From Alphaproteobacteria bacterium (GTDB lineage Bacteria; Pseudomonadota; Alphaproteobacteria; Bin95), in NCBI GenBank assembly GCA_963665325.3, contig OZ224045.1, positions 2,368,001 to 2,432,000 on the forward strand: a DNA stretch of 64,000 bases. The letters run 5' to 3'. A program made the translations under genes and the position numbers. The notes under the pieces are model-generated. The model did not search any database and had not been told where the DNA came from. It saw only the letters and a list, made by a program, of their open reading frames with translations. Positions 5,487 through 64,000 of this stretch are shown here, one piece after another; within the stretch, counting starts at the first letter, position 1; each line of letters opens with the position of its first letter.

Positions 5487-5650
5487 CCACAGGGTCTCCA
5501 GAATCGGGGCGGAACGATCGCGCCTATGCAAGCCCATCCCGCGCCCGCGCGCAAGTGCGGGTGCCCGGCCGCGGCCATAGGGACTTGCCCCGGCCGGCGG
5601 TTTCGGCAAGCTGGCGCGAGGTTGCGAATTTCTTGCATGACGGGAGGCAG

Positions 5651-23882: not shown

Positions 23883-23892
23883 GGGGCGGAAC

Positions 23893-24922: not shown

Positions 24923-24939
24923 ACCGAAGGGAAGGCGTT

Positions 24940-41444: not shown

Positions 41445-42395
41445 ATGAGAGCACTTTCGAAGGGAATTTTCGCGGCCTTGTTTGCGCTTTGCGCCGCGTT
41501 GCCGGCGTCGGCGACCGATTGGCCGACGGGCCCGGTTACCATGCTGATCGGCTACAAGGCCGGCGGCGGCACGGACACCAAGGGCCGCGTGCTCGCGAAG
41601 ATCCTGACGCGCGAACTCGGCCAGCAGGTGAATGTCATCAACCGGGCAGGCGGCGGCCAGGCAGTCGCGCTCGAGGGCTTCAAGAACGAGGAGCCCAATG
41701 GCGACATGTTCTTCTTCGGCGCCGTGTCGGGCATAACGCTCAATCCGCAGATCAACTCGGCGCTGCAGTTCAGGGCCGACGACTATGTGTACGCCGGTGG
41801 GTTGACCGAATTCCAGGTGACCATGGTTGCGCCTGCAGACGCGCCGTTCGACGATATGGCCGGCTTCGTCGCCTACGCGAAAGAGAAAGGCAAGATCAAA
41901 TATGCTTCTCTCAGCCCGGGTGCGAAGATCGTCATGCAGGCCATCGCGCGCCAGTCGGGCCTCGAGGTGGACTATATCCCGACCAAGGGCGGGCGCGGCA
42001 TGGTGCAACTCGTGCTTTCCGGCCAGGTCGATTTCGCCTATTCCGGCGGCATCCACGCGCGCTATCCGGGCAAGTTCAAGACCATCGCCGCCGTCTCGAC
42101 CAAGCGCCTCGGCAACTACCCCGACACCGAAACGCTGATCGAAGCGGGCTATGAGGGCGTCGCCATCGATGCTCCGACCGTCGTCGCCTTCCCCAAGGGA
42201 ATCGACCCGGCCATCGTCGCCAAGATGGAGGCGGCGCTGAAAGTCGCGTCCACCGACCCCGACATGATGAAGATTTCGAAGTCGATCAACATGCCGATCG
42301 TTTACCAGACGGCCGCCGAGGCATCGCAGCTTGTCGAGGACTCCGCCGCCGCAATCGCCGTCATGCTGGACACTATCGGCTACAAGGCAAGCTGA
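41445..42395 (+). CDS. tctC: Tripartite tricarboxylate transporter substrate-binding protein TctC
   Basis: Signal peptide, WPTGPV..AGGGTD, NRAGGG, PTKGG. Confidence 0.88.
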   Translation: MRALSKGIFAALFALCAALPASATDWPTGPVTMLIGYKAGGGTDTKGRVLAKILTRELGQQVNVINRAGGGQAVALEGFKNEEPNGDMFFFGAVSGITLNPQINSALQFRADDYVYAGGLTEFQVTMVAPADAPFDDMAGFVAYAKEKGKIKYASLSPGAKIVMQAIARQSGLEVDYIPTKGGRGMVQLVLSGQVDFAYSGGIHARYPGKFKTIAAVSTKRLGNYPDTETLIEAGYEGVAIDAPTVVAFPKGIDPAIVAKMEAALKVASTDPDMMKISKSINMPIVYQTAAEASQLVEDSAAAIAVMLDTIGYKAS

Positions 42396-42414
42396 CACGA
42401 GGAGACCGGCAACC

Positions 42415-43239
42415 ATGACTTACGAGACCATAGAAGTCCGTCCGCTGACTCCGACCGTCGGCGCAGAAATCCACGGCGTCAACCTCGCCGAACCGATGGG
42501 GAACCACCAGTTCACCGAAGTCCACGATGCGCTGATGCGCCATGAGGTGATTTTCTTCCGTGAGCAGGAGATGACGCTGGATCAGCACAAGGATTTCGGC
42601 CGGCGGTTCGGGGAACTGCATATCCATCCCTTCCGGCCGGGTCCCGAGGGCCATCCTGAGATCCTCCGGATCCACACGGACGCCAATTCGACCCAGATCG
42701 CGGGCGAGGCCTGGCATTCGGACGTCTCCTGCGACCCCGAGCCGCCATTGGGATCGATCCTGCATCTGCACACCGTGCCGGAAGAGGGCGGCGACACGCT
42801 GTTCGCCAGCATGGCGGCGGCCTATGACGCGCTGTCGGAGCCGATGAAGGAGTTCCTCGGCGGGCTGACCGCCATTCACGACGGCACGCGGAACTATCGC
42901 GACCGCAGCGCGCGTGACGGCAGGGAAGACACCAAGGTCTATCCGCGCGCCGAGCATCCGGTGATCCGCACCCACCCGGTGACCGGCAGGAAGACGATCT
43001 TCGTCAATCCCGTGTTCACAGAGCGGCTGAAGGACATGCCGCGCGACGAGTCGGACGCGATTCTGGGGTTCCTCTATCGGCACAACGCCAAGTCGAAGTT
43101 CCAGGCGCGGTTCCGCTGGCAGGCGAACTCTGTGGCCTTCTGGGACAACCGCAGCGTCCAGCATCTGGCGATGTGGGACTACTATCCAAATGTGCGGTCC
43201 GGCAACCGGGTGACGATCCAGGGCGACCGCCCGTTCTGA
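42415..43239 (+). CDS. Taurine dioxygenase-like TauD protein
   Basis: FGELHIHP, WHSDVS, GGDTLFA, HPVIRTHP, FWDNRSVQH. Confidence 0.92.
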   Translation: MTYETIEVRPLTPTVGAEIHGVNLAEPMGNHQFTEVHDALMRHEVIFFREQEMTLDQHKDFGRRFGELHIHPFRPGPEGHPEILRIHTDANSTQIAGEAWHSDVSCDPEPPLGSILHLHTVPEEGGDTLFASMAAAYDALSEPMKEFLGGLTAIHDGTRNYRDRSARDGREDTKVYPRAEHPVIRTHPVTGRKTIFVNPVFTERLKDMPRDESDAILGFLYRHNAKSKFQARFRWQANSVAFWDNRSVQHLAMWDYYPNVRSGNRVTIQGDRPF

Positions 43240-50400: not shown

Positions 50401-51228
50401 CGCGAGCAACACGCCCGCAGCCGGGCCGCTCTCGACAATGCGGACGGGGTATTCGCCTGCCAGCGCGGGCGAGACGAGCCCGCCGTTCGACTGCATGATG
50501 GAAAGTTCGGCCGACGAGCCGGCAGCTGCGAAATCCTCTGCGAGCCGGCGCACATAAGCGCCCACCAGGGGCTTCACGAAGCTGTTCGCGACCGTGGTGT
50601 TGGTGCGCTCATATTCTCTGAGCTTCGGTGAGACATCGACCGACAGGCTGAGCGCCGCGTCGGGCACGCGCGCGGCGACGGCCCTGCCCACGGCCCGCTC
50701 ATGGGCGGGGTTGGCATAGGCGTGGAGCAGCGCCACCGCGACGGCCTCGTAGCCGTCCTCAGCGATGCGCTCCAGAACCAGGGCAAGCTCTTCCTCGTCG
50801 AGCGGCTCCAGCACCTCGCCCTCGAAGGTCACCCGCTCCCGCACTTCGAAAATCCGGTCGCGGGGAATCAGCGGGTCCGGCTTCCGCATGTGGAGGTCGT
50901 AGGTTTCGTAGCGTTTCTGCCGGCCGAGGATGAGTACATCCCGGAAGCCGCGCGTTGTAATCAGCGCCGTCTTCGCCCCGCGCCGCTGGATGATGGCGTT
51001 GGTCGCGACAGTCGTTGCGTGGAGAACCTGCCCTATGCCGTGCGCGCCCGCTCCGGCCTTTTCGAGCAGCGCCGGCAGGCCGTTCCGGACCGCTTCGGAA
51101 GGGTCGGCGGGCGTCGAGGGAACCTTGTGGACCGCAACGCGGCCCGTCGCCTCGTCGCGAAGCACGAAGTCGGTGAAGGTACCGCCAACATCGATTCCCA
51201 TTCGGTAGGCGGGTTTCTTGTCAGTCAT
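47482..51228 (-). CDS. Fused hydantoinase A/B (5-oxoprolinase family)
   Basis: GIDVGGTFTD, ESGPAAG, DMGGT, VGPESAGADPGPACY, then DPITF..GHLGS..GHFPD..GAGGYG. Confidence 0.9.
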   Translation of the reverse strand: MTDKKPAYRMGIDVGGTFTDFVLRDEATGRVAVHKVPSTPADPSEAVRNGLPALLEKAGAGAHGIGQVLHATTVATNAIIQRRGAKTALITTRGFRDVLILGRQKRYETYDLHMRKPDPLIPRDRIFEVRERVTFEGEVLEPLDEEELALVLERIAEDGYEAVAVALLHAYANPAHERAVGRAVAARVPDAALSLSVDVSPKLREYERTNTTVANSFVKPLVGAYVRRLAEDFAAAGSSAELSIMQSNGGLVSPALAGEYPVRIVESGPAAGVLLAGRIGRDIGADGVLSFDMGGTTAKLGAIDGGEPAIAPVFEIDPVRFKKGSGLPINVPAVELIEIGAGGGSVAAAVDGAIRVGPESAGADPGPACYGIGGLRPTVTDANLTLGYLNPAYFNGGAMALDPAQAEAALRRHVAGPLSLSTAEAAWGVHLVATGNMEHALRVVSVERGRDPRKYALVAFGGAGPLHAARIARSLGVRQVVVPRAAGVGSAVGMLAAESRLDASVTRLLRLDEAAPGDIAAIYAQLEARLAEDLARLPEASEPEFRRFAYMRHTGQGFEIHVDLPAGRIGEGYIGACEAAFRAAYKARYRTEDPASGVEGVDWALAAVVPGSRDVSAVEADARPIGEPPGMRRAWFPEAGGITETAIWRREAIGPDTLIEGPAIVEDAEATTVIPPGDRARLGPGGHLLIDVEQVASEQEPEDRARPTTAGPCSGAKAVEVSIDPITFTVIWNSVVSIAEELGTTMRHTAFSEAVREGDDFSTAVFDAKGRMIAQGNFSPGHLGSMPFVIRHVTEAYPPETLKPGDSILMNDSWMGSGHFPDFFQVMPVFEGNDLLGYVAASAHQMDVGGAAPGSQKVHGVTESFQEGFRILPVRFCREGQIDRDILSMVLANTRVPEKVRGDVMAQHTANLTAAERFRQLFRDHGRPVVEQSFDDILDRSEARMRAALASVPPGTYSFDDQMDDYGPGTAPIHFGVDITFAEGPEGAEVTVDFSRSSDQVPAAINSYINYTRAYTYFAVKVFCDPFSPQNAGAMRPIRLAAREGSFFNPKFPAPSGGRAALQVRIFDTINGAMAQAMPERAMGAFSHWSNPNIGGIDDRTGKPYVFYDLILAGYGGRADSDGPEGLSPVMNCSNIPVEVHETNLPVLIHRVELLDGTGGAGRHKGGSGLRKDIELLAGEGVLTLLGDRHESRPYGVFGGEPGALGETVLNPDGNGERLGSKEIRTLKRGDVVSIRTSGAGGYGRPGG

Positions 51229-51250
51229 TTTCCATTATCTACCAATGCTT

Positions 51251-51266
51251 TACGATGTGTATCGTA
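51251..51266. promoter_or_regulatory. Palindromic operator candidate upstream of the hydantoinase gene
   Basis: TACGAT-GTGT-ATCGTA perfect inverted repeat 22 bp before the ATG. Confidence 0.5.
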
Positions 51267-51556
51267 TCACCTGCACAGGAAGCATCCAGTTCGCCCGCAA
51301 TTGTACCGTAAGCGGATTTTCCTCAACTCTGAGTCCAGCGCACCATGGGCGCATTCTGTCCTTGGCAACTTCCTGCACGAGCCATCCTGCACATGCCGCC
51401 TCGGCCCTTCGCGCGTCGTTGAAGTGGGTAGTGCAGGGTACGAGGTTGCGGGCCAAGGTATCAAGCGGTCGGCAATTCTTCCGATGTGGGCCTGACCTGT
51501 CCCCGAGGCGCTTCTCTTCCGGTTCTGCGGTGTAGTTACTCCCCTGGTTGAAGACG

Positions 51557-51582
51557 GTGGCTGGTTTGCTCCGCCGTTGACA
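51557..51582 (-). mobile_element. Possible isolated IS21-family terminal repeat remnant
   Basis: Minus strand TGTCAACGGCGGAGCAAACCAGCCAC resembles recalled IS21 ends; no transposase adjacent. Confidence 0.35.
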
Positions 51583-51661
51583 CCAGCACCGCCGGTATTG
51601 GCCGAGCCGCCAGGTCGTCCGAATAGGCGGGGCCACCTCACTTGGGGAAGTTGCCCGCCTC

Positions 51662-51670
51662 TGTCATAAT
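51662..51670 (+). promoter_or_regulatory. Extended -10 element suggesting a leaderless smt transcript
   Basis: TGtCATAAT ends 6 nt before the ATG at 51677; no Shine-Dalgarno sequence. Confidence 0.4.
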
Positions 51671-51676
51671 GCTCAC

Positions 51677-52708
51677 ATGGCTCGTTCTTCCGCCAAACGG
51701 GCGGCTTCCCGCTCGCTCGCGAATCTAGCTCCGGACGACGTGAAGTCCGTGGTGGACGACTACGCGGCGATTTACGACGCCGGCGAGCAAGGCAGGAGAG
51801 AGCAGTACCGCTCGCTCGTAAATCATTATTACGACCTTGTGACCGACTTCTACGAGTTCGGCTGGGGCCAGTCCTTTCACTTCGCGCCCCGGCGCCGGGG
51901 TGAGAGCTTCAAGGCGTCGCTGCTCAGGCACCAGCATTTTCTCGGCGACCGGTTGTCCCTGGAGCCGGGGATGCAGGTGCTCGATGTGGGATGCGGGGTC
52001 GGCGGGCCGATGGGCAATCTGGCGCGCTATTCCGGAGCCGGCTTTGTCGGCATCAACAACAACACCTACCAGATCGAGCGCGCCAAACATCACACCCGGG
52101 ATGTCGGGTCGTTGTGCCGCTTCATCCACGGCGACTACATGCGGATTCCCGAAGGAGACGATTGCTACGACGCCGCGTTCGCCATCGAGTCCATGCCCCA
52201 CGCGCCGGACAAGGCGGGGGCGTTCCGCGAAATCCTGCGCGTCCTGCGCCCGGGCGCCTGTTTCGCGGGTTACGAGTGGTGCCTCACCGACGATTTCGAC
52301 CCTGAAAACGCGGAGCACCAGTGGATCAAGAACGAGATCATGGTCGGGGATGCGCTGCCGGAAATCGCCTCCATGCCGGAGATTTGCGACGCCTTGCGCA
52401 CGGCCGGGTTCGAACTGCTGGAAGCCAAGGACCGCGCCCCCGAGTCGGACCCCGGGATGCCCTGGTACCGCGCCCTGCAGGGCCGCGATCTCACTCTTTC
52501 CAGCATCCCGCGCACGCCTTTCGGTCGGGCCCTCACCAATCTGACGCTGCGGGTCGGAGAGAGGCTGCGGCTGTTTCCGGAGGGTTCCCGCGCGGTCAGC
52601 ACGCTGCTGAATGCGGCGGCGGACGCGCTGGTCGAAGGCGGCAGGACCGGCATCTTTACGCCGATGTTCTTCTTCCTCGCCCGCAAGCCCCTGCGCCCGG
52701 AAGACTGA
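51677..52708 (+). CDS. smt: Sterol 24-C-methyltransferase (ERG6/SMT family)
   Basis: YYDLVTDFYEFGWGQSFHFA (sterol-binding region I), VLDVGCGVGGP (SAM), AIESMPHAP, YEW, GGRTGIFTPMFFFLARKP. Confidence 0.93.
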   Translation: MARSSAKRAASRSLANLAPDDVKSVVDDYAAIYDAGEQGRREQYRSLVNHYYDLVTDFYEFGWGQSFHFAPRRRGESFKASLLRHQHFLGDRLSLEPGMQVLDVGCGVGGPMGNLARYSGAGFVGINNNTYQIERAKHHTRDVGSLCRFIHGDYMRIPEGDDCYDAAFAIESMPHAPDKAGAFREILRVLRPGACFAGYEWCLTDDFDPENAEHQWIKNEIMVGDALPEIASMPEICDALRTAGFELLEAKDRAPESDPGMPWYRALQGRDLTLSSIPRTPFGRALTNLTLRVGERLRLFPEGSRAVSTLLNAAADALVEGGRTGIFTPMFFFLARKPLRPED

Positions 52709-55700
52709 CCGAAGCCGCTTCGGCGGCAAGGCGGACAGCCGGAATCGACCGGTCCCGGCGGCGGCGCTCGTAAAGACCGAGCGCGTGCAGCGGGAAATAC
52801 TGGCGATAGAGGACGTAGTCCAGCAGGGCCGTTCGGAAGAAAACGCCGGCCATGTCCTGTTTGGGCCACGTCCCTTCTGCCTCCTGCGTGTCCAGCAAGA
52901 ACCTGGCGCCCCGCGAAATAGCGGCCCAATTCGAGTCGCCCGCCTCAAGAAGCGCGATCAGCGCCCAGGCGGTCTGGATGACCTGGCTTTCCTCGTGAGA
53001 GACATAGCGGCCGGTCAGGCACCCGCTGTGATGCTCGCCCCAACCGCCGTCGTCCCGCTGGCGCTCCAGCAGCCAGCGGCAGGCCGAACGCAGCGCCGGA
53101 TCGCCGGGAGACGCCCCGGCGGCAAGAAGACCTCTGACTCCGAACAGGGTGCCGTAAATGAACTGAACGCCCCATACGCCGCGCCACGACCCGTCGGTCT
53201 CCTGGGTCCGGCGCAGCCACGAATCGGCCCGGGAGACGGCATCCGCCACTGCCCCATTTGCGATTCCGGGACAGTGCTCCCTGCACGCGCAGAGCGCCGC
53301 GAGGCAGGACGCGGTACATTCGACAAACGAATGCTCGGTCATCGAGTCGCCGAACATCTCGGCGGGATTCAGCCACTCCAGGCCGAAAGCCGAGCGTCGC
53401 GCCTCGTAGCTGCCGAAGCCGCCGTCGCGGTTCTGGCCGCGCAACATGAACCCCACCGCATCGCCCAGCGCGGCGCTGTCTGCATCGGCGCCCCGGGCGG
53501 CGACAATCCCGAGCACCGCCTCCGCGGTGCAGTCGCTCACCGGCCAGCCATGCCATCCCCCGGCAAAACACCATCCGCCCCTGGGGTCGGTGCGGTAAGC
53601 CTCGCGAAACCCTTCGAAGCTGGTGTCGATCTGCTCGCCCAGCAGGAAACCGGCTCCGCGCCCGAGTGCGTCCCCGACCCCGGCGGGCTCGGGCAGCGCC
53701 GCCAGCGCCTGCAGCGCGAACCCGGTGTCCCAGGAGGCGCTTCTCGCACCGGTCACACGCGCTCCCTGCTCCTCGTCCTCCCAGATCCAGCCGTCCAGCT
53801 GCGCGAGCGCCTCGTGAAAGTCGGGGTCGTCCGGATCGTGGAGCCACAAGGCAAGGATGTTGAGGAGACCGCTGACCGGGGAGATACTGGTGTGGCTGGT
53901 GGTTTGCAGCTCCCACTTTATGCGCCGGACCATGTCTTCCGCGCATCGGGCGCGCAGGCGTTTGCCGTGGAACCGTTCGAACAGCCGGGCAAGCCCGTAT
54001 CCGATCTTGAGCCAGGCGCTCGGCCGCGCGTAGAGGTCTGCATCCCGCAAGCGGTTGCGGGATGCAGAAAAATCGACGCCGGCAAAGCCCTCCGGGAACA
54101 GTTCCTCCCGCAAGGAGGCGATCTCGGGCGTGACGGGCGCCTGGAACCGGCGCGCGTAAATCGCCGCCATCGCCATGTAGATCAGCCGCGTATGGCAGTA
54201 CCAGTTCGAGGGGTGCAAAGGTATCCGGCGCGGCAGGCTCCAGAGCTCCGGCAGAACCGCGGTCACCCCTCGCCAGTCATAGAGGTTGAGAAGCGCCAGC
54301 CAGAACTTCCCCCAGCTCGGAATGGCGAGAACCCCCTCGGCCTGCAGGAACCGCCGGGCCGGCGTGACCAACGGATCGTCCCGCTCGACACCGAGCAGTC
54401 TCGCCGCGACATAGACGAGCGCGGTGACGAACAGGTGCGGCGGCGAATGCTCGTGCAGGCCCCATGAGCCGTCTTCGAGACGGGTCCGTTCGAAGGAGCG
54501 CAGCACACGCCGGCGCCGCCCGGGCTCCAGCGGCCGCCCGATAATGCAGTGCAGCAGCGCATATTGCGCGGTGAGCATGGGGCACCAGACCATCTCGCCT
54601 TCCCAGGCCCCGTCCTCTCTCTGTAGACTCAAAAGGCGCGCGGCTGCGCTCCTCAATGCCGGACCGGCGTCGGGCGATTCGATTTCCTTCGGGCCGGCAG
54701 GCCTGGAGGATTCGACGCCCGGAGACATGGAGTACAGGAACGCGCGGGCCAGTCTGTTCCGGGTCTGCCTGCTCTCCTCCCGGCCCTCGCGACTCGCTTT
54801 CCGCAGCTGCCGAACGCCGCTCTGGAGCCACCAGATGCGAATGGCGAGCGCCCTGAAAATGGCCCGGGTCCGATGCGAAGCGAACCGGCGGAAGGAGAAC
54901 GGATTCTCCCGGGTCAGCGCCCGGGTCACCGTTCCGCAAAATGCGAGAGTCATGCCGATCGCGGAGCGGTCCTCGCAGGCGAGTATCCGCGTGGTCCGGT
55001 CCCGATACGCTGGATTCGCCCGCCAGCCTCGGTAGATCGCGGATCTGAGGGCGACTGCTTCCACGCGATGATCGGCGAAGACCTCGTAGAGCCCCATTGC
55101 GAGGAACTCGGGAATGCGGGTCGCCCGGAAGCGTTCAGCGGTGAAGTCCCGAAAGCGCTCGTTCTCGGCGAGCGTCAGCGCATCGCCGAAACCAAGCGTC
55201 ATGCCGACCGCCGTCATGGGATGGTAGTGCCCGGCCGCGTCGCCGATCAGAACCCGGCGCGGGCTTCCGTATGTGACGCGCGGCCTCAGCTGATTGGCCG
55301 CCGCATGGAATTGGCCCGCCCGCAACGCCTCGACGAAGGCCGGCCCGAGGGCCCCCGGCAGCAGCCCGGCGCAGGATTCCGACAGGAAGGCAACCCGGTC
55401 CCGGGGCGTCCAGCGGTCCAGCGGAAGATCGACGATGACCCGGACGCAGCCGTCGGCCAGAGCGTATATGAGAATCGGACCCGGCCCGCCCAGCACCACA
55501 TGCCCGTAGCCTTCGAAGGGCAAGCCCGCTTCGCCTATCGTGACCCCCAGCATTCGGGAGCATAGCATCGGGTCCGTGGACAGACCCAAAGATTGGCGCA
55601 CGATCGAGGCCCGGCCGTCGGCACCGACAATGCGCGCAGCGGCTATGGAGCGTTCGGCGCCGTTTGCCGAGAAGGTAACGCGCTCGTCATCGACCGCACT

Positions 55701-56090
55701 GACCCGCGCGTGGGAAATGAAATCGACGTCGGCTTCGTCCTCGATGGCTTCGCGGAGGCTCGAGACGAGCAGCGCATGATCGCATGCCAGACCGCGGGAC
55801 CCGTCCGGATAGGGAAGCAGGATCGGATCTGAGCCGTCCTCCGGGAACACCGCAAATCCGTTGCCCGGCGTGCTTCGGGGCAGCGTGTCGATGTCTATCC
55901 CGATGTCGCGCAATATCCTGACGGCCGGCGGATGCAGCCACTCGCCGGCCAAACGCCCCGACGCCTTGGGATTGGCTTCGAGGAGGGCCACCCGGGCACC
56001 CTTGCGCGCATGGGCGAGCGCGCACAGGCTCCCTACCGGGCCCGCGCCGACAATGGCGACATCGTAAGGCCGCTCGGCGGCGCCGCTCAT
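52656..56090 (-). CDS. Squalene epoxidase-oxidosqualene cyclase fusion (1144 aa)
   Basis: N-terminal VGAGPVG, RLAGEWLHP, GADG, GDAAGHYHPMTAVGMT; C-terminal QW repeats, IPSWGKFWL, WYCHTR, HGWPVSDCTAE, WLNPAEMFG, WGVQFIYGT. Confidence 0.93.
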   Translation of the reverse strand: MSGAAERPYDVAIVGAGPVGSLCALAHARKGARVALLEANPKASGRLAGEWLHPPAVRILRDIGIDIDTLPRSTPGNGFAVFPEDGSDPILLPYPDGSRGLACDHALLVSSLREAIEDEADVDFISHARVSAVDDERVTFSANGAERSIAAARIVGADGRASIVRQSLGLSTDPMLCSRMLGVTIGEAGLPFEGYGHVVLGGPGPILIYALADGCVRVIVDLPLDRWTPRDRVAFLSESCAGLLPGALGPAFVEALRAGQFHAAANQLRPRVTYGSPRRVLIGDAAGHYHPMTAVGMTLGFGDALTLAENERFRDFTAERFRATRIPEFLAMGLYEVFADHRVEAVALRSAIYRGWRANPAYRDRTTRILACEDRSAIGMTLAFCGTVTRALTRENPFSFRRFASHRTRAIFRALAIRIWWLQSGVRQLRKASREGREESRQTRNRLARAFLYSMSPGVESSRPAGPKEIESPDAGPALRSAAARLLSLQREDGAWEGEMVWCPMLTAQYALLHCIIGRPLEPGRRRRVLRSFERTRLEDGSWGLHEHSPPHLFVTALVYVAARLLGVERDDPLVTPARRFLQAEGVLAIPSWGKFWLALLNLYDWRGVTAVLPELWSLPRRIPLHPSNWYCHTRLIYMAMAAIYARRFQAPVTPEIASLREELFPEGFAGVDFSASRNRLRDADLYARPSAWLKIGYGLARLFERFHGKRLRARCAEDMVRRIKWELQTTSHTSISPVSGLLNILALWLHDPDDPDFHEALAQLDGWIWEDEEQGARVTGARSASWDTGFALQALAALPEPAGVGDALGRGAGFLLGEQIDTSFEGFREAYRTDPRGGWCFAGGWHGWPVSDCTAEAVLGIVAARGADADSAALGDAVGFMLRGQNRDGGFGSYEARRSAFGLEWLNPAEMFGDSMTEHSFVECTASCLAALCACREHCPGIANGAVADAVSRADSWLRRTQETDGSWRGVWGVQFIYGTLFGVRGLLAAGASPGDPALRSACRWLLERQRDDGGWGEHHSGCLTGRYVSHEESQVIQTAWALIALLEAGDSNWAAISRGARFLLDTQEAEGTWPKQDMAGVFFRTALLDYVLYRQYFPLHALGLYERRRRDRSIPAVRLAAEAASVSLPGAGACGRGRRTSA

Positions 56091-57496
56091 TGGAAAACGC
56101 CCGGCTCCGAACGACGACGGTAGCGGACCCGGCACGGTGTCTCGGGGCCCGTCACCCAGCTGCCGTAATTCGGACGCGGAAACCTGGTACCGGGAAGGAA
56201 GTCGAAGCGGTCGAGCAGAACGGTCCAGATCGCCTTGAGCTGCATGTAGGCGAAATTCTTTCCCATACACGCGTGTTTGCCGCCGCCGAAGCCGATCAGG
56301 GCGTAGTGATGCTGTTTGTCCTCGCTGGCGGGCGGCGCGAAACGGTCCGGGAAGAACTGCTCCGGGTCGGCGAACACATGGGGCAAGCGGTGGGAGACCG
56401 CCGGCGACACCATGGCCATGGCGCCGGCGGGCACGATATTGTCCCCATAGCGCAGGGGGCTGAGCACCTTGCGGATCAGCAATATCAACGGCGGGTGCAG
56501 CCGCTCGCACTCGCGCACGGCATTCTCCAGCACGGTTTGCTGCCGGAGACTCGAGATGCCAATGGCTTCCGCCTCGCGGTAGACGTCGTGCATCTCGTCT
56601 CTGACCCGCTCCAGGTAGGATGGCGCCCTCAGGAGCTCAAGACCGGTCCAGGTCGCGAGCACCGCGCTCGTGTGCTGGCCCGCGAACAGGACCGTCAGCA
56701 GGATCCCCGTTATCTCGTCGTCGCTCGGGGCGCGTCCGTCCTTGTAGCGCGCGTCCATGAGCGTCTGCATGAAATCGTCGGGGCTGGCTCCGAAACGGCG
56801 GCGCGCCGCCATGATCCCGCCGAAGATCTCGGCCACTTTCCGCCGCGCCCTGTCGCGGGTTCGATGGGCGGCTGTAGGAAGTTTGGGGAGAAAGAACCCG
56901 AGCGTGTTTATGCCGTTTTGCAGGTCGTGGTACGCCTCGGCGAAACCGGCGTCCACCTGGTCGCGGACTTCCTGCCCGATGAGGCAGCGGCTGGCGATCT
57001 TAACGGTGAGCTCGTTCATCGCGTGCGGCAGGTCGATTTCCCCGTGCTCGCCGAGGGCATCGGCAAACCGCTTCGTTTCGTCGAACATGATGAGCGCGAA
57101 CCTGCGCATGGCGGCTTCGCGGAGCGCCGGAAACAGGAACCCCAGCTGCTCGGACATGATTTCGGGGGAAGCGTCATAGGCCACGCCGCGTCCGAAGATG
57201 GGTATCGTGAACCGGTAGACGGCCTTGGCGTTCAGCTGTTCCTCGGGCGCCCTGAAATAGAAGTCGTGGGCTTCGGGCCCGGCGAAGAGAACGAAATCGC
57301 GGGGACCGAGCCTGAAGCGGAAGAGCTCGCCATGCTCCCGCCAACCGCGGCTCAGCATGGCGACGGGATCCCTTTGAAACTCCGCCAGATGGCCCAGAAG
57401 CGGCCACCCGCCCGCGAGTTGGGGAGCGCCCTGCTCCACACGCGGCGCGGGCTCCGCCGGATGCAGGGTTGCCGGATTGTGGGACCGGTTCGCCAT
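56087..57496 (-). CDS. cyp51: Sterol 14-alpha-demethylase CYP51
   Basis: YRFTIPIFGRGVAYD, FAGQHTS, ECERLHPP, heme motif FGGGKHACMG. Confidence 0.92.
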   Translation of the reverse strand: MANRSHNPATLHPAEPAPRVEQGAPQLAGGWPLLGHLAEFQRDPVAMLSRGWREHGELFRFRLGPRDFVLFAGPEAHDFYFRAPEEQLNAKAVYRFTIPIFGRGVAYDASPEIMSEQLGFLFPALREAAMRRFALIMFDETKRFADALGEHGEIDLPHAMNELTVKIASRCLIGQEVRDQVDAGFAEAYHDLQNGINTLGFFLPKLPTAAHRTRDRARRKVAEIFGGIMAARRRFGASPDDFMQTLMDARYKDGRAPSDDEITGILLTVLFAGQHTSAVLATWTGLELLRAPSYLERVRDEMHDVYREAEAIGISSLRQQTVLENAVRECERLHPPLILLIRKVLSPLRYGDNIVPAGAMAMVSPAVSHRLPHVFADPEQFFPDRFAPPASEDKQHHYALIGFGGGKHACMGKNFAYMQLKAIWTVLLDRFDFLPGTRFPRPNYGSWVTGPETPCRVRYRRRSEPGVFQ

Positions 57497-57504
57497 CCTC
57501 GCCC

Positions 57505-58605
57505 TCAATGGATAAACGGCAGCATCGAAAAGCGCGCCTGCTGCCTGTAGCGCTCCCACAGCTCGCCATATTTGGCGCGGCAGCGCCGCTCATCGCGCGT
57601 CGAGCGGTGCCATAGCAGGCCCGCCAGCCACGCCGGCAACAGGAAAGGGAACCAGGACGCAAGTCCGGTAGTCAGCGCGAAAGCGAGGTAAACGCAAATC
57701 TCGCCGGTATAATTGAGATGGCGTCCGATGCCCCAGAATCCGGAGACCAGCAGGCGCCCGTCCAGGGTCCGGGCGGGTTGTCCCCAGATCGCGATATCGG
57801 GGTCACGCTTGAAGCGGTGCTTCTGCTGGTTGGCGCCGCGGAAAAGCCAGAAGCCGAAGACGAACAACAGGGCGATCGCCGCCGCGGCGGCCGGAGACAG
57901 CGGTTCCGGTGCGTGAACCAGCCACCAGCCGGGCAGACAGTAGAAGAACGGTACCAGCACGTAGTCGCCCCAGACCAGCATCCACCCGAAGCGCTCGCTG
58001 ATGATGTCCCAGGTGTGGATCATTCCGTGCTCGAACTGGAAGTAGTTGAGCACGTAGAGGAACGTGAAGACCTGATAGAGCGCCATCGCCAGGGTAAGCT
58101 CGCCGTAGGTCTCGTACTGCACGACGGCAAACGATGCGTTGATCAGCGCCAGGCCGATGAGGGAGGGGCGGTAGCTGAAGAACTTCAGGTCCAGCCCGAG
58201 CCAGACCGGGCCGGCATCGACACCGCAGAAGAACCCCCGCAAGAATCCCGGCGATGCGTTGGGCGCCAGCGCCCCCCGCAGATACAGCCAGCCGGCGAGA
58301 GCAAAGGCGAATCCGTTCGCGGCCACGAACAGGGCCGCAAAATGGGTATGCAGCACGGATAGGGAGAACCAGCCGAAGGCCTGCGCGAAGCCTGCCGCGA
58401 GCGCGGCAGCCAGGAACAGCGCGAGGCCGTTGAGCTTGTAGACGCGCTGCCCGCCCTCGGCATCCGGCCCCGCGATGCGGCGGCCGGGCAGCAGCATCGA
58501 TCCCAGGAACAACACCGCGACAAACACCAGCGCCATCGCTGCCGCTTCGAGCAACGCCCCGCCAGAAAGCGCGGACGACAGGTTGGACGCCTCAGACGTG
58601 GGCAT
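57505..58605 (-). CDS. ERG4/ERG24-family sterol reductase (probably C-14 reductase)
   Basis: YKLNG, DLKFFSYRP, DIISERFGWMLVWGD, LLVSGFWGIGRHLNYTGE, HRSTRDERRCRAKYG. Confidence 0.9.
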   Translation of the reverse strand: MPTSEASNLSSALSGGALLEAAAMALVFVAVLFLGSMLLPGRRIAGPDAEGGQRVYKLNGLALFLAAALAAGFAQAFGWFSLSVLHTHFAALFVAANGFAFALAGWLYLRGALAPNASPGFLRGFFCGVDAGPVWLGLDLKFFSYRPSLIGLALINASFAVVQYETYGELTLAMALYQVFTFLYVLNYFQFEHGMIHTWDIISERFGWMLVWGDYVLVPFFYCLPGWWLVHAPEPLSPAAAAAIALLFVFGFWLFRGANQQKHRFKRDPDIAIWGQPARTLDGRLLVSGFWGIGRHLNYTGEICVYLAFALTTGLASWFPFLLPAWLAGLLWHRSTRDERRCRAKYGELWERYRQQARFSMLPFIH

Positions 58606-59692
58606 CGCCCTTCTCCGGTCCACGCGCCAGATACTCGCGCCATTTGCGCACGGTCACTTCCTGAAAGGCCTTCACCACCGGATTGAACTCGACGGGACGG
58701 GCGTCCCAATGTTTCTCGTAGCCCTCCTGCTCCGCTTCGAGCGCAAATTGGTCCTGGGCGAGCAGGGGGCCGATAAGCACACGGTTGGAGATATTCATGA
58801 CCGCGGTCATGGCGAAACGGGGAATGCGCACCGGGAGGAAAGGTATCTTCAGCGACTTGAAGTAGAACAGGAAGAACACCCGGGTGGTGCGCTCATCCAC
58901 AGGCAGTACGAAAAGCCAGTGCTTTATCTCGTCGTCGGTGTTCGACCACTGGTAGGGATATTCGTAGCAGAGCTTCATGCTGTTGGTGTCGAGCCGCTTG
59001 TGGTCCACGAACAGTCCGGAGATGCGCCCGCGCCCGACGCGGGTGTCATAGGCGAGATGCACATCGTCCCCGACGGTCTCGCAGGAGACGAGCTCGGCTC
59101 CGTCGAAGGGCCGGTAGCGGCGGTGCAGATGCGCGTGGGTGAAGTCGCTCACATTGTCGATCACCATCGAGTGATGCGCCGACCAGGTGAAGCGCAGCGG
59201 CACGCAGGTCCACCGGCCAGGGCCCTCAAGCTCGGGAATGTCCGGAATCCGGCGCATTTCGGCCTGCTCAGGATCCCCGGGGAAGAGCCAGATCAGGCCG
59301 TAGCGGACCTTCACCGGATAGGTCTTGAGCGCGAGCCGCGGAAAGCTTCGCCCGTTGCCGTCATACGGGACCCCGGCCGGACGCTCTTTTCCACCGTACT
59401 CCCAGCCATGATAGGCGCATACCAGCCGGCACCCTTCCACATGGCCGATGGAGAGCTTGAGCTGGCGATGCGCGCAGCGGTTCTCGATCGCCTGGAAGGA
59501 GCCGTCCGTTCCGCGAAACAGCGCAATCGAATGTTTCCAGAAGACGACCTCGACCACCGTCCCCGGCTTGACCCGGCGCACTTCCTCGACCGCATACCAG
59601 TAATTCGGGTCCATACCCGCGGCGCGCGCCTGCTGACGCAGGGTGCCCGCGTCCTCGAACCCGGGCGGGTGTGCACTCGGCGCCGGCGTCAT
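58592..59692 (-). CDS. Rieske non-heme iron oxygenase, putative sterol C-4 methyl oxidase (SdmA-like)
   Basis: CAHR..CAYHGW, NVSDFTHAHLH; function inferred from operon context. Confidence 0.78.
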   Translation of the reverse strand: MTPAPSAHPPGFEDAGTLRQQARAAGMDPNYWYAVEEVRRVKPGTVVEVVFWKHSIALFRGTDGSFQAIENRCAHRQLKLSIGHVEGCRLVCAYHGWEYGGKERPAGVPYDGNGRSFPRLALKTYPVKVRYGLIWLFPGDPEQAEMRRIPDIPELEGPGRWTCVPLRFTWSAHHSMVIDNVSDFTHAHLHRRYRPFDGAELVSCETVGDDVHLAYDTRVGRGRISGLFVDHKRLDTNSMKLCYEYPYQWSNTDDEIKHWLFVLPVDERTTRVFFLFYFKSLKIPFLPVRIPRFAMTAVMNISNRVLIGPLLAQDQFALEAEQEGYEKHWDARPVEFNPVVKAFQEVTVRKWREYLARGPEKGDAHV

Positions 59693-60849
59693 GTCGGGCT
59701 CCCGTCGGGCATTGCCTGCAAGCCCTGGGGCGGTGCGGGACTTTCCGCCTGTCTCGCAGCGCACCGACCCGGGACGTCCGCACGGGGTCGTTTCGCCCGC
59801 GGATTCCCGATCGCGTTGCGGCCGTAGTGAAACGCATAGGCCTCATGGACCGCATCGCGGATGCCGGTCGGCCGGTAGCCGAGTTCCCGTTTCGCCTTGC
59901 CGAGATCGGCGTGGCGGCACTTCTTCAGCAGGCGTATGGCGCCGGGGGTGAAGCGCTGGGGAAAGCCCGGGTGGAACCGGCTCAGGTAAAAGCTCGCCAT
60001 CTCCGAAAAGACGAGCATCAGGCGGGTCGGAATCCGCCGGCGCGGCCGCGGGATTCCCGAGACCTCCTCATAGAGGCCCACGATCTCCGAGATGGTCTTG
60101 TACTCGCTGCTGAAGATGTATTTCTCGCCCGAGCGACCGAGGCGCATGCACAACAAATGTCCTTCGACAATGTCGCGTGCCGCGACAAACTCGAAACCGC
60201 CGTCGATATAGGCGCGGAGCTTGCCGTCGGTGTAATCGCACAAGGTTCTTCCCAGTCGCGAGGGGAAGAAATCGGCGCCTCCCACCACAGCACAACATGT
60301 TGCGACCACGACATCCTGTCCCGCCGCCGCGGCGCGCCAGCATTCCTGCTCGACGAGCGACTTGCTGCGCTCGTAGGGCATCGTGCGCTCCATGGGATAG
60401 AACAGCATCGTCTCGTCGCTGGGCGCGGACGGGTCGTCCAGATCGTAACCGACGGCGCTGAAGGAGCCGGTCACCACCACCCGCCCGGCCTCGGCTTCCC
60501 GCGCCGCCTGCAGCACGTTTCGGGTGCCGAGGACATTGCACTCGAAGATTTCCCGGCGGTGGGCGCGGTTGCCTTCGATGGTCGAGATCTTGGCTGCGAC
60601 ATGATAGACGCCCCGACAGCCGGCGAGCGCCTGCCTTACGGCATCCAAGTCCCGAATGTCGCCGAACGCGTGTTCGACATCGAGGCCTTCCAAAGCCTCG
60701 TTGTTGTCCTCATGCCTCAACAACACCCGGACCCGCACGCCGTCGTCGAGCAGCCGGCGCACGAGATTGGCGCCGACATGCCCGGCCGAACCGGTAACGA
60801 AAACGGGCGGCGTCGATGAGCCCGGCGGTATGCTCGATGCTGAAGCCAT
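59689..60849 (-). CDS. Extended SDR / 3-beta-HSD-like oxidoreductase, putative C-4 decarboxylase/reductase (SdmB-like)
   Basis: VTGSAGHVG, GDIRD, YHVAA, NVLGT, YERSK; stop overlaps the Rieske start (ATGA). Confidence 0.78.
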   Translation of the reverse strand: MASASSIPPGSSTPPVFVTGSAGHVGANLVRRLLDDGVRVRVLLRHEDNNEALEGLDVEHAFGDIRDLDAVRQALAGCRGVYHVAAKISTIEGNRAHRREIFECNVLGTRNVLQAAREAEAGRVVVTGSFSAVGYDLDDPSAPSDETMLFYPMERTMPYERSKSLVEQECWRAAAAGQDVVVATCCAVVGGADFFPSRLGRTLCDYTDGKLRAYIDGGFEFVAARDIVEGHLLCMRLGRSGEKYIFSSEYKTISEIVGLYEEVSGIPRPRRRIPTRLMLVFSEMASFYLSRFHPGFPQRFTPGAIRLLKKCRHADLGKAKRELGYRPTGIRDAVHEAYAFHYGRNAIGNPRAKRPRADVPGRCAARQAESPAPPQGLQAMPDGSPT

Positions 60850-60921: not shown

Positions 60922-61213
60922 GACTGTACCTCCATCTTCGGGATGACCCCCGCGCCGACCGACCGGTGCGATGCCCAACAAAGCAGAAACTAGATGGCTC
61001 AATACTATAATGTCCAAGACGATTTAATCATATTGTTCATGAGATTTTCCAATGGATAACCCTGCCGCGGCGCACTCCGAAAAGCGGGTTTCCATTTCCG
61101 TCCCGACCCTCTCCAGACGCGTCCTTGAATAAGGAAAAACGCCCAAATGTCAATAATGCTACTGAGTCAGGCGCTCAACTTCCCGTGCTCCGCCAGAGCT
61201 GCCGCAGGCACCG

Positions 61214-61596
61214 GCTGCATGCCGCCAATGTTCAGGACCGCGACGGCGCGCCGGACGTGCTGAAATCCATACGCAATGCATGTCCCAGGCTCGGCCGCCT
61301 GTTCGCCGATGACGCCTATGCCAGGCCGAAACTGCGCGGCGCCTTCGACAGGATCGGAAAGCGGTCGCTCGAGATCGTCAAGCGTTCCGACAATGCAAGC
61401 GGCTTCGACGTCATCTCCAGGCGATAGGTCGTCGAACGCACCTTTGCATGGCTTGGGCGCTGTCGACGGCTCCCACGGGAACCCGAAAAATCCATCGCCA
61501 CCAGCAAGGCTTGGACGGCCATCGCACACATCCACCTCACAAACCGGCACCTCAAAAGGCCATGTCATCATTGACCGGCTTCCGAGCCGGGCTCTT
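61214..61596 (+). pseudogene. IS5-family transposase C-terminal remnant with in-frame stop
   Basis: HAANVQDRDGA..LFADDAY..RR*VVERTFAWLGRCRRL (TAG at 61425-61427 in place of conserved Trp); end-like TTCCGAGCCGGGCTCTT at ~61580-61596. Confidence 0.85.
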
Positions 61597-61960: not shown

Positions 61961-63340
61961 ATGAACTCACCCAGTCCTTTGAACCTTCCGGAAGAGCTAA
62001 TCGTAATGCTTCTCAACGAGCAGACCGGATATTTTTACCAAGTAGAAGGCTGGACATTGAACTGCGTCATCATTGGTGCAGTCCTGGCCGATCTATCACT
62101 GAAATCGCGTATCGATACAGACGAAGAATCGCTCTTCTTGGTCGACTCAACTAAAACAGGAGAACCGATACTCGATCTATGCTTGGAAGAAATCAAATCG
62201 CACCCCGATCAACAGAACACACGTTACTGGTTAGAGAAACTTACGGTTCATTCGGAAACCATTATCGATGCTACGTTAGAACGCTTAGTTAACTTAAAGA
62301 TTTTTACGCATCATGATGGCGGATTCTATACACTCAACCACTCCAACTGGCATAACATCAAGTCCGAGATTGAACAAGTGATCTTTACCGATACTATTCC
62401 CAGTCCCAGAGATTCTTTGATAATTGGTCTTTTGAACGCTTGCAACATCATTCGCTTTATCTTCGAACTTGACGATGACACGGAAGTCAAAATCAAATGG
62501 ATTTGCAACTTGGAAGCAATTAATCGAAAAATGTCCTCCAGCCTGGAACAGGTTATAATTACTCCTGCTATACGATCCACGCCTCTCAGTAAAAAGATTC
62601 CAAAGATTTCTCTGAAGGACCTTTTATCAAATCGACGCTTCTGGGACGGAAATGTTCCAGCACTAATTGCAAGTATCGCTAACCAACATGGCCCCGTCTT
62701 CCAGTTGCAGCTGCCATTTAAGAAGCCGACCACCTTTCTGGCCGGGCCCGAAGTTAATCGATGGGTACATCGGAATGCTCGTACGCATATGACTTCCGGA
62801 AATTATTTTCGCGAGTTAGAAGAGGCCTGCGGCGCACAAGGCTTAATCACGTCCCTGGATGGCGCCGACCACTTTCGACTCCGCAAAGTGATGAGGAGTT
62901 ATTACTCGGCAAGAAAATTCATTGAAAGACTAGATGACGTGTGCAAATTACTCCGGCAATATATGTCAAATCAGAACTGGCAACCCGGATCTGTAATAGA
63001 AGTAAAGCGCGATACTCGTCTGATGATTAACTTACAAATGACTCAAATTACCGTCAGCACCGATTCGCAGGATATTTTTGAAGAACTGGTCGCGTGGAAG
63101 GAAAGAGCGTCCAATTGCTACGTTGGGCATCTGATGCCGAATTTCATGGCACGCACTCCGGCGATGAACAAGCGCTTCAAACTTCTTGGTGCCTTTATGC
63201 GACGAATCGAACAAAACCACACACCCTTTCAACGCGCGGGGGCGGTTCGGGAACTGGCGGACGATGTGTTCAGTTTACATCGCAGCGACCCCCAGTTTCT
63301 TCCGGAACAGAATCTAGGTCGTGGACTCATAAGCACGTAG
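61961..63340 (+). pseudogene. GPP34 (GOLPH3/Vps74-like) domain fused to cytochrome P450, interrupted by IS
   Basis: N-terminal LNLPEELIVMLLN..G..GAVLADLSLKSRI..LERLV; C-terminal HGPVFQL..LAGPE..SLDGADHFRLRK; breaks before helix I and heme Cys at the IS junction (63316/63317); AT-rich. Confidence 0.75.
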
Positions 63341-63742
63341 CCAGAGTCTGATAGTTGCGATCTTGATCATGGCCAGGAAGTTGGCCGCGAGCTTTTCGTA
63401 GCGGGTGGCGATGCGGCGGAACTGCTTGAGCTTGTTGAAGGCGCGTTCGATACGATTTCGCAATCGATACAACAGTTTGCTGAAGGCGTGCCTGGTCTTC
63501 GCGCCTTCTCGGTCGGGGATGATCGCGACGGCATCGCGTTGCTCGATCAGCTCACGGATCCATTTGGCGTCATAGGCCTTGTCGGCGATCAGGAAACTGT
63601 CGGGCGGCAGGTTCGCCAGCATGGCGCCGGCGGTCGTGCTGTCGTGTGCCTGGCCGGGGCTGAGGTCGTAGCGGATCGGCAGACCGGTAACGTCCGCCAC
63701 GGCGTGGATCTTCGTGGTCAGTCCACCACGGGAACGACCCAT
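63314..63742 (-). CDS. IS5 transposase OrfB (DDE part)
   Basis: GRSRGGLTTKIH, IADKAYD, RNRIERAFNKLKQFRRIATRYEK. Confidence 0.9.
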   Translation of the reverse strand: MGRSRGGLTTKIHAVADVTGLPIRYDLSPGQAHDSTTAGAMLANLPPDSFLIADKAYDAKWIRELIEQRDAVAIIPDREGAKTRHAFSKLLYRLRNRIERAFNKLKQFRRIATRYEKLAANFLAMIKIATIRLWLRAYESTT

Positions 63743-64000
63743 GCAACGATCCGGACCCCCCTTTTTGCACCCGCCGCGTGCTGGTGAACCCGGACGCTCG
63801 AACTGTCGATCATCTGCACGTTGCTGTCGTAAGCCTCCACCACCGCATCCATCAACTGATCCCAGACGCCCTTCTTGCGCCAGCGGTTGAACCGGTTGTA
63901 GCAGGTCGTATAAGGCCCGTAGCGCTCCGGGAGGTCACGCCACGGCGCCCCCGTGCGAAGCACCCACAGAATGCCGTTCAACACTCGGCGATCGTCCACC
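63317..64000 (-). mobile_element. IS5-family (IS427-like) insertion sequence, runs off the window end
   Basis: End GGTCGTGGACTCATAAG next to CTAG/TA target; two overlapping transposase ORFs. Confidence 0.9.
63718..64000 (-). CDS. IS5 transposase OrfA (partial)
   Basis: DDRRVLNGILWVLRTGAPWRDLPERYG..YNRFNRW..MIDSS; slippery AAAAAGGGGGG at 63766-63756. Confidence 0.9.
   Translation of the reverse strand, partial: VDDRRVLNGILWVLRTGAPWRDLPERYGPYTTCYNRFNRWRKKGVWDQLMDAVVEAYDSNVQMIDSSSVRVHQHAAGAKRGVRIVAWVVPVVD

Follow-up and report, generated by a model that had tools for sequence, protein, structure and literature searches.

The 64,000-nucleotide stretch analysed here (the window) is taken from contig OZ224045.1 of an Alphaproteobacteria bacterium (assembly GCA_963665325.3, positions 2,368,001 to 2,432,000), and towards its right end it holds six genes of sterol biosynthesis families. 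Five of them, for a short-chain dehydrogenase/reductase (SDR) of the SdmB type, an SdmA-type Rieske oxygenase, an ERG24-type reductase, a CYP51 and a squalene epoxidase-oxidosqualene cyclase fusion (SE-OSC), form an operon on the minus strand, and the gene for a sterol C-24 methyltransferase (SMT) converges on them from the plus strand. Based on what we observe of gene content, intact motifs, purifying selection, insertion and wide distribution, this is probably a working copy of a horizontally spread sterol cluster of sponge symbionts, published as msbA-F or CSG. The features of the cluster are listed below, with lengths in amino acids (aa); gene starts were obtained by trimming the maximal open reading frames (ORFs) to starts that fit the homologues.

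51229..51676, no strand: non-coding stretch upstream of the SMT gene and left end of the insertion (the homology to congeners breaks at 51228)
51677..52708, plus strand: sterol C-24 methyltransferase SMT (ERG6/MsbF type), 343 aa (Sterol_MT_C)
52656..56090, minus strand: SE-OSC fusion (MsbE type), 1144 aa (SE, FAD_binding_3, SQHop_cyclase_N/C)
56087..57496, minus strand: CYP51 sterol 14-alpha-demethylase, 469 aa (p450 domain, solved CYP51 relatives)
57505..58605, minus strand: ERG24-type sterol delta-14 reductase, 366 aa (ERG4_ERG24)
58592..59692, minus strand: SdmA-type Rieske oxygenase, 366 aa (NF052579, Rieske and VanA_C)
59689..60849, minus strand: SdmB-type NAD(P)-dependent SDR, 386 aa (NF052578 and 3Beta_HSD/Epimerase)

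A preliminary description of this DNA had placed six sterol genes at these coordinates, in a tight operon converging on the methyltransferase, and had proposed a profile check of each gene family. Pfam and NCBIfam profile searches matched all six families and confirm the six genes, and the junctions agree with the operon that had been described. On the minus strand the order is SdmB, SdmA, ERG24, CYP51 and SE-OSC. SdmB and SdmA share a 4-nt ATGA overlap, SdmA and ERG24 overlap by 14 nt, ERG24 and CYP51 are separated by an 8-nt gap, GGGCGAGG, that contains GAGG, and a second 4-nt ATGA overlap puts the start ATG of SE-OSC within the stop of CYP51 (the refined start gives 1144 aa, compared to 1284 aa for the maximal ORF). 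Since every junction is overlapping or spaced by 8 nt, co-translation of the operon as a single unit is indicated. The 3' ends of SMT and SE-OSC overlap by 53 nt.

The GC content of the sterol cluster (0.65-0.67) is close to that of the whole contig (0.666). All six genes are full-length ORFs in which every catalytic or cofactor motif that we looked for is intact, and pairwise comparisons with a congener (G009), a metagenome contig (L094) and a further relative (L001) give dN/dS values of 0.07-0.31 across the six. Judged by these ratios, the six genes are under purifying selection.

The fused protein matches the Pfam families SE (PF08491, E 2e-21), FAD_binding_3, SQHop_cyclase_N (2e-49) and SQHop_cyclase_C (5e-54), with the squalene epoxidase (SE) occupying about residues 1-450 and the oxidosqualene cyclase (OSC) about residues 480-1110. 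The epoxidase carries the FAD motifs GAGPVG at residue 15 and GDAAG at residue 283. For the cyclase half the nearest solved structure is human lanosterol synthase 1w6k (E 7e-131), and a VSDCTAE motif at residues 851-857 aligns to human OSC 453-459, placing a valine at human position 453 and the catalytic aspartate at 455. The valine is found in all 75 fused homologues and the aspartate in 74 of the 75. The same valine was used to designate MsbE a lanosterol cyclase (Mohanty 2020, PMC7074536), and we consider lanosterol the likeliest product predicted for the cyclase. This is the sole triterpene cyclase in the genome; a second one was searched for there and not found.

The CYP51 has a p450 domain (E 2.5e-55), and its 56 best relatives among solved structures are all CYP51 enzymes, the first being that of Methylococcus (6mcw, 1e-102, residues 10-452 of 551), whose C-terminal ferredoxin domain the protein encoded here does not have. 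CYP51 enzymes carry a B' helix signature, YxxFxxPxFGxxVxYD, alongside a heme-binding cysteine loop and the I-helix motif GQHTS; the corresponding motifs here are YRFTIPIFGRGVAYD, FGGGKHACMG and GQHTS. The ERG24-type reductase matches ERG4_ERG24 (PF01222) at E 8e-72 and has the delta(14)-sterol reductase 4quv as its nearest solved relative (E 8.6e-64), in a comparison that did not include an ERG4 or DHCR7 reference.

The best model for SdmA is NF052579, 4beta-methylsterol monooxygenase (E 1e-120, 403 bits), and for SdmB it is NF052578 (E 3.5e-88, 296 bits). SdmA has the Rieske motif CAH-x17-CAYH and the mononuclear iron motif DFTHAHLH, and SdmB has the NAD(P) motif GSAGHVG and the YxxxK motif as YERSK. 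SdmAB is described as taking off a single C-4 methyl in Methylococcus and both of them in Calothrix, with the Enhygromyxa pair needing SdmC (PMC10202945). Because the number of methyls removed differs between lineages, it cannot be read from the sequence of SdmAB. The preliminary description had spoken of partly demethylated sterols, and of this C-4 demethylation is supported, leaving the choice of one or both methyls outside what SdmAB can tell. Supplementary Data 1 of an earlier study lists SdmB homologues from clusters of this kind with 52-54% identity to Calothrix SdmB versus 43-45% to that of Methylococcus (PMC10070321).

The SMT is the only protein in the genome that matches Sterol_MT_C (PF08498, E 4e-22), and it contains the YEFGWG motif and the S-adenosylmethionine (SAM) loop LDVGCGVGGP. 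We mapped its residues through the numbered landmarks given in the available text of the preprint of Brown and Welander (10.64898/2025.12.19.695621), and by this landmark mapping it retains 25 of the 25 residues conserved in functional SMTs. The protein has Tyr81 and Phe83, and at yeast position 249 it has an aspartate (Asp225 here), the numbering offset of 24 being constant from landmark 217 to landmark 268. According to the same preprint (10.64898/2025.12.19.695621), Gly249 is necessary for the formation of 24-isopropyl sterols. With aspartate instead of this glycine, the SMT is predicted to methylate, and perhaps ethylate, the side chain and not to propylate it; 24-isopropyl sterols are thus predicted not to be made. 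In vitro, 8 of 10 SMTs of sponge symbionts were reported to methylate desmosterol (Brown 2023, PMC10070321).

Compared with its counterpart in G009, the SMT has 79% aa identity and a dS of 0.60, and the operon genes have 92-97% and dS values of 0.07-0.32, a difference that suggests that the SMT allele was exchanged separately from the operon. This exchangeability could also be taken to mean that the enzymes mainly tailor sterols taken up from the sponge host instead of making them de novo: the SMT is the most exchangeable part by the identities just given, and one SMT of Chlamydiae is described that occurs without any other sterol gene (Brown 2023, PMC10070321). We judge this very improbable, as the genome has both the SE-OSC and a squalene synthase, these are under constraint, and they make sense for de novo synthesis only.

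To place the cluster in its genomic context, we compared the surrounding sequence with congeners; positions above 64000 are window-equivalent positions beyond the end of the window, and G000 denotes the genome from which the window is taken. The cluster lies in an insertion of 16.3 kb (51229-67565) between two housekeeping genes, an oxoprolinase-like (OPLAH) gene on the left (47482-51228) and an SDR gene on the right (67577-68377). In all five congeners examined (G008, G016, G013, G011 and G009) the site is empty, with the flanking genes 12-45 bp apart, which indicates that 51229-67565 was inserted in this genome. The homology of the congeners to the OPLAH flank ends at position 51228. At another chromosomal place G009 carries a collinear unit of 15.5 kb (corresponding to window positions 51707-67170, from SMT to the MMPL pump described below) with 82-94% DNA identity, and the same island layout is found in the independent metagenome contig L094.

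Within the genus, SE-OSC is present in 10 of 17 genomes, G000 included, and missing from 7. Those without it include G008, G015 and G016, each scored 100% complete and assembled in 1-2 contigs. In each of two sister genera none of 10 genomes has it. In one congener the SE-OSC match is broken into two parts that lie about 1.9 kb from each other, as though the gene were interrupted there (G012:C3:2418361-2423758).

Each edge of the island has a short dispersed repeat. A part of about 245 nt of the left edge (51229..51676) recurs with 80% identity at two other places in the genome, and the right edge resembles an IS66-type transposase remnant, judged by eye only. A search for direct or inverted repeats at the island edges found no convincing att-like pair. 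The right part of the island (about 61900 to about 67200), which holds the GPP34-P450 gene and the pump, has 44-58% GC versus 67% for the genome; together with the host-like GC of the sterol operon, this indicates that the island is a mosaic.

The low GC of this right part and the eukaryote-like gene families are what could be said for an assembly chimera or eukaryotic contamination, a reading to which we give next to no probability. The contig is 2.57 Mb long, in a genome scored 100% complete, with the cluster 2.37 Mb into it, and the genes of the cluster overlap in the manner of an operon. The 15.5-kb unit is also found in a 3.4-Mb contig of a congener and in an independent metagenome contig (G009 and L094), and the insertion edges are precise against five empty sites. 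The preliminary description had named a chimeric contig as a possible objection, and these observations, together with the host-like GC of the cluster, make such a chimera unlikely. Its assignment of the DNA to a probable alphaproteobacterium also fits, since the same-genus genomes G014 and G010 are labelled Alphaproteobacteria.

Three TauD-family dioxygenase genes (5555-6505, 22539-23402 and 42331-43239) and genes for SoxY and a flavocytochrome-c sulfide dehydrogenase (23463-26226) lie in the flanks, making taurine and sulfur metabolism prominent around the island.

Relatives of the fusion were found in 429 stretches of one-genome-per-species contigs, and the loci counts given here refer to the 80 best of these 429. 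In their best segments the 80 relatives are 63-91% identical, and the matches of all of them extend over both domains; these span almost the full query in 78 cases, and in the other two, on cut contigs, they begin at residues 43 and 144. The same five-gene order is found in 60 of the 80 loci, showing that the arrangement is not due to chance, and in 29 of these 60 a convergent SMT follows directly. All six families are present in 54 of the 80. The related records include Alpha- and Gammaproteobacteria, Nitrospirales, Binatia, Bryobacterales, Opitutales, Thermodesulfobacteriota and Palauibacter, many with names of sponge symbionts, and the cluster occurs in metagenome-assembled genomes (MAGs) of at least seven phyla.

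In the tree of 75 SE-OSC homologues the phylum labels cluster, the branches between phyla are short and a few lineages are nested in foreign clades. We rejected the use of this tree for host taxonomy because the cluster is mobile, and relied on records of the same genus for that purpose. Six runs labelled sponge metagenome, each from a different study, contain 41-43% of the sequence words sampled from the cluster, and two RNA runs with that label yield contigs 90-99% alike to it. Contigs from RNA libraries (three libraries, two studies), likewise 90-99% alike, cover parts of all six genes and give a weak hint that the sterol genes are expressed. There are bins of the cluster that no such contig covers, nor does one cover the OPLAH flank, and contigs of this type cannot show absence.

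Clusters of this kind with a fused SE-OSC have been in print from sponge-dwelling bacteria since 2020. The msbA-F cluster, from a gammaproteobacterial symbiont of the sponge Melophlus sarasinorum, is described with the same six genes (Mohanty 2020, PMC7074536): overlapping genes for an NAD(P) oxidoreductase and a Rieske oxygenase, a sterol reductase, a C30-demethylase, a bifunctional squalene epoxidase/sterol cyclase with the diagnostic valine and a SAM-dependent sterol methyltransferase. The squalene synthase is on another scaffold there (PMC7074536), as it is here. The host differs, being gammaproteobacterial whereas the genus of the window is labelled Alphaproteobacteria, and the likeness is drawn from the published description.

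The authors of msbA-F tied the cluster to sarasinoside biosynthesis (PMC7074536), whereas here the cluster is an insertion with a GPP34-P450 gene and an RND (resistance-nodulation-division) pump. In line with the reading proposed for msbA-F (PMC7074536), the genes in the window could make the aglycone of a sarasinoside-like nor-lanostane sponge product, with SdmAB carrying out other tailoring (e.g. C-23 oxidation) and the methyltransferase adding methoxy groups. We find this unlikely for several reasons: there is no glycosyltransferase in or beside the island, the cluster is found in MAGs of at least seven phyla, the C-4 demethylase models are the best matches of both SdmA and SdmB, and the SMT has all 25 of the residues of C-24 SMTs, homologous enzymes of symbionts having methylated C-24 in vitro.

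The CSG of Ircinia sponge symbionts has the core ERG24-CYP51-LSS, as does the cluster here, with a 'DFR' (equivalent to SdmB) and a hypothetical protein (equivalent to SdmA) upstream on the same strand and SMT or FDFT1 at the 3' end on the opposite strand (Kelly 2022, PMC9531527). Of 537 MAGs, 115, spread over 10 phyla, were reported to have CSGs, and horizontal gene transfer and low omega values of 0.13-0.26 were reported as well (PMC9531527), which agrees with the SE-OSC tree and the dN/dS values obtained here. The available text of that paper names the fused gene only as LSS/ERG7 and mentions neither squalene epoxidase nor GPP34 (PMC9531527). In the clusters reported by Brown 2023 (PMC10070321), one gene ID matches both ERG1 and ERG7, with ERG11, ERG24, sdmA and sdmB after it and an SMT next to them; such clusters come from an A. 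aerophoba contig, a T. swinhoei Chromatiales MAG and a Nitrospira MAG, and the Methods of that paper name 'Fused SMO/OSC homologs'. That study assayed SMTs, and some of its clusters have two SMTs or a DHCR24 homologue (PMC10070321), compared to the single SMT and no DHCR24-like gene in G000. The part of its supplementary data that was searched names neither the lineage of the window nor any contig that matches the loci compared here (PMC10070321).

Outside the sponge symbionts, the same families serve C-14 and C-4 demethylation in Methylococcus capsulatus, and among solved structures the CYP51 encoded here is nearest to the Methylococcus enzyme. In Methylococcus, SE and OSC are separate genes, and its pathway is not known to include an SMT. 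Its CYP51 has a ferredoxin domain, which is lacking here, and its SdmAB is described as removing one C-4 methyl only (PMC10202945).

In view of these published clusters, the earlier suggestion that the locus is the best candidate for a novel system does not hold: the same six-gene cluster is in print (msbA-F in 2020, CSG in 2022), and SMTs of this type were assayed in 2023. The preliminary description had itself foreseen that an identical cluster already characterised would reduce novelty, and msbA-F, CSG and the Brown 2023 clusters do so. It had also called the cluster self-contained, which is right in that the six pathway genes are clustered and wrong in that the squalene synthase candidate is on another contig, no redox partner is in the cluster and the inserted unit reaches past 60849 to the GPP34-P450 gene and the RND pump. 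What is new here is the island with its empty sites, the linkage to GPP34-P450 and a pump, the prediction from SMT residues, and the placement of squalene synthase and redox partners elsewhere.

The remaining features of the island, to the right of the operon, are the following.

61125..61427, plus strand: transposase remnant, a 100-aa ORF in the 1.07-kb spacer between the sterol operon and GPP34-P450 (likeness to an IS5-type C-terminus, judged by eye)
61961..63316, plus strand: GPP34-P450 fusion (GPP34_L type), N-terminal two thirds (GPP34 domain E 1e-21)
63314..64000, minus strand: IS5-family insertion sequence (IS), 843 bp, continuing to about 64156 (DDE_Tnp_1 E 2e-21, 20-nt inverted repeats)
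G000:C1:2432147-2432773, beyond the window end: C-terminal part of GPP34-P450 (match to the L001 homologue)
G000:C1:2432844-2435189 (window-equivalent 64844-67189): HpnN-like MMPL/HAE3 RND transporter, directly after GPP34-P450

The ORF at 61125..61427 is conserved in G009, with weaker copies in L033, L031 and L011; apart from this transposase-like remnant, no ORF conserved as a protein was found in the spacer between SdmB and GPP34-P450. The GPP34-P450 gene diverges from the sterol operon and is not a single complete ORF here, as the IS splits it at about codon 465. Residues 1-453 of the 658-aa homologue in L001 match the part in the window, and residues 450-658 match 830 nt further on, past the window end. 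The gene is uninterrupted in G009 and L094, and G009 lacks the IS at this place. Other copies of the IS5-family element in the genome comprise four of full length (97.5-99.9% identity), one in two pieces and one fragment of 297 nt. The pump scores 132 bits against the HpnN models, far below their cut-off, and is 76% identical to the pump that adjoins the same fusion in a gammaproteobacterial MAG (L015).

A second, intact GPP34-P450 gene, about 49% identical, lies 1.2 Mb away (G000:C1:1245243-1247300) in a module with a LolA-like protein and another MMPL pump (G000:C1:1245243-1250684, equivalent to L092:9243-14684). The LolA-like protein is a periplasmic one. Genes for a resolvase, a transposase and two phage-type integrases lie beside this second module, marking it as a separate mobile module.

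The architecture of the gene next to the operon is that of GPP34_L, a fusion of GPP34 and cytochrome P450 described from sponge symbionts (Microbiome 2025, PMC11706023). GPP34_L is reported as exclusive to sponge symbionts, and the proposal made for it is that it is secreted, binds PI4P and keeps phagosomes from maturing (PMC11706023); the words sterol, lipid, RND, MMPL and LolA do not occur in the main text of that paper (PMC11706023). The case described here differs in that the gene is linked to a sterol operon and an HpnN-like pump and that this copy is split by an IS. A literature search on GPP34 with sterol or sponge found no paper that links GPP34 to sterols. With a profile of the GPP34-P450 protein, the best matches among solved structures are CYP51 enzymes (1e-24) and the 60 best are all P450s, and a single-sequence search with the GPP34 domain returned no match among solved structures at E values up to 0.01. 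A Foldseek search with the model of the protein (pLDDT 82.6) returned generic P450s only (CYP184A1, CYP102/BM3 and CYP51), giving no hint of the substrate.

A GPP34-P450 gene is found no further than 10 kb from SE-OSC in 33 of the 80 loci; these 33 represent six phyla or more, and their arrangements vary. An MMPL pump is present in 29 of the 80 and both genes in 26. In 11 of the 80 (L011, L021, L023, L027-L030, L038, L040, L058 and L059, two of them on short or cut contigs) SE-OSC occurs without the four demethylation genes in reach, and in 10 of these 11 GPP34-P450 adjoins it, often with an MMPL pump, a minimal arrangement of cyclase, P450 and pump. A search of the metagenome collection for loci centred on GPP34-P450 returned four, a number too small for counting, one of which (L094) has the whole island. 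In the genus, all 10 genomes that have SE-OSC also have GPP34-P450, in full or in part, versus 2 of the 7 that lack SE-OSC, counts that are not independent as the genomes are kin. Five of five SE-OSC genomes without a nearby GPP34-P450 carry one elsewhere.

These patterns allow a wider reading, in which the sterol operon is half of a mobile island for making, tailoring and exporting a sterol: GPP34-P450 would oxidise the sterol and the pump would deliver this sterol to the outer membrane or the sponge host. We advance this tentatively, as a possibility somewhat short of an even chance. Between two congeners the 15.5-kb unit, with SMT at one end and MMPL at the other, moves as a whole, the 33 loci with GPP34-P450 near SE-OSC (26 with the pump too) span several phyla, the genus shows the uneven counts just given for its related genomes, and CYP51 enzymes are the best solved matches of the P450 profile. 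On the other hand, the association may reflect a shared sponge habitat, as the five genomes without a nearby copy all have one elsewhere, the copy in the window is itself broken, and the fold search pointed to generic P450s only. Among known transporters, we compared the pump by description with the BstABC sterol transporters of M. capsulatus (PMC10942540) and with the hopanoid transporter HpnN; by this analogy the MMPL/HAE3 RND protein of the island could act at the inner membrane in the outward transport of sterol; no outer-membrane partner was identified here.

Returning to the sterol cluster itself, we propose the following pathway, in which each chemical step and the order of the steps are inferred from the enzyme families. 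Squalene would be supplied by a eukaryote-like squalene synthase encoded elsewhere in the genome, for which there is a candidate on contig 3 (PF00494 183 bits, best NCBIfam match TIGR01559). The SE domain would convert squalene to 2,3-oxidosqualene, and the OSC domain of the same protein would cyclise this most likely to lanosterol. CYP51 would then take off the 14-alpha-methyl, the ERG24-type reductase would saturate the delta-14 bond left after this demethylation, SdmA and SdmB would strip one or both C-4 methyls, and the SMT would methylate C-24. The expected end products are delta-8, 24-methyl(ene) sterols, such as fecosterol-like C28 or 4-methyl forms, with no 24-isopropyl sterols. Epoxidation, cyclisation, C-14 demethylation and reduction, C-4 demethylation and C-24 methylation had all been ascribed to the locus before, and homology, motifs, selection and the published near-identical clusters support this assignment.

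Several observations weigh against such a working pathway. In the cyclase, the score against NCBIfam TIGR03463 is 736 bits where the curated cut-off is 851, and the residues aligned to human positions 381 and 449 are Ala782 and His847, both invariant in the 75 homologues; the assignment of position 381 is the less sure one since an alignment gap adjoins it. We take the triad of lanosterol synthases to have threonine at human position 381 and cysteine or glutamine at 449, compared to which alanine and histidine are not canonical, and the OSC product may be parkeol or cycloartenol. The scores of SdmA (403 bits) and SdmB (296 bits) are below the equivalog cut-offs of 600, in models built on the Methylococcus type. 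The island encodes no redox partner (ferredoxin or reductase) for CYP51, SdmA or SE. A profile search of the genome for EBP (PF05241) gave no homologue, and a DHCR24-like gene was not found in it with the L015 protein as the query; without EBP and a DHCR24-like gene, the products would stay delta-8 and delta-24(28) unless unknown enzymes act. The RNA-library contigs come from relatives, their libraries may contain DNA, and they give neither strand nor level. Some decay is under way as well, judging from the GPP34-P450 gene broken by an IS and from the IS scars in the island.

Other genes of the genome bear on the last steps. A search for ERG2 gave no match and is uninformative, as the control genomes were silent too. 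A second reductase of the ERG4/ERG24 family (379 aa, G000:C4:374758-375819) is more distant and, apart from a TauD-family gene beside it, stands alone; its activity may be that of a delta-24(28) or a delta-7 reductase. In L019 and L057 a paralogue like this one adjoins the cluster. The genome also has one FA_hydroxylase gene outside the cluster.

A further possibility is that the cluster, decaying or silent, is carried along by the mobile island and yields no product in this organism. The IS in the adjacent GPP34-P450 gene, the transposase remnants in the island and at its edge and an IS family that is active in the genome fit such a history, as do the SE-OSC in two pieces in G012 and the absence of the cluster from 7 of the 17 genomes of the genus. 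We nevertheless hold it to be quite unlikely, as six full-length ORFs with intact motifs and dN/dS of 0.07-0.31 point to genes that are maintained, and contigs from RNA libraries fall, as weak evidence, on parts of all six genes.

Steranes with alkylated side chains serve as fossil markers of eukaryotes, and 24-isopropylcholestane serves as one of sponges. It is because of bacterial clusters such as the one in the window that this biomarker reading of alkylated steranes is contested. The locus brings no enzyme that is new; it is nonetheless a clean and fully linked example in a near-complete genome, in which the whole pathway moves as an island of 15-16 kb within one genus and the sterol operon is physically tied to the GPP34-P450 'symbiosis' gene and a lipid pump. 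With its complete set of genes on one contiguous piece of DNA, it makes a convenient template for a bacterial 24-alkyl sterol pathway. If the island does make, tailor and export a sterol, GPP34_L would be an enzyme of the sterol pathway, and the 24-methyl sterols of the symbiont would enter the sterol pool of the sponge.

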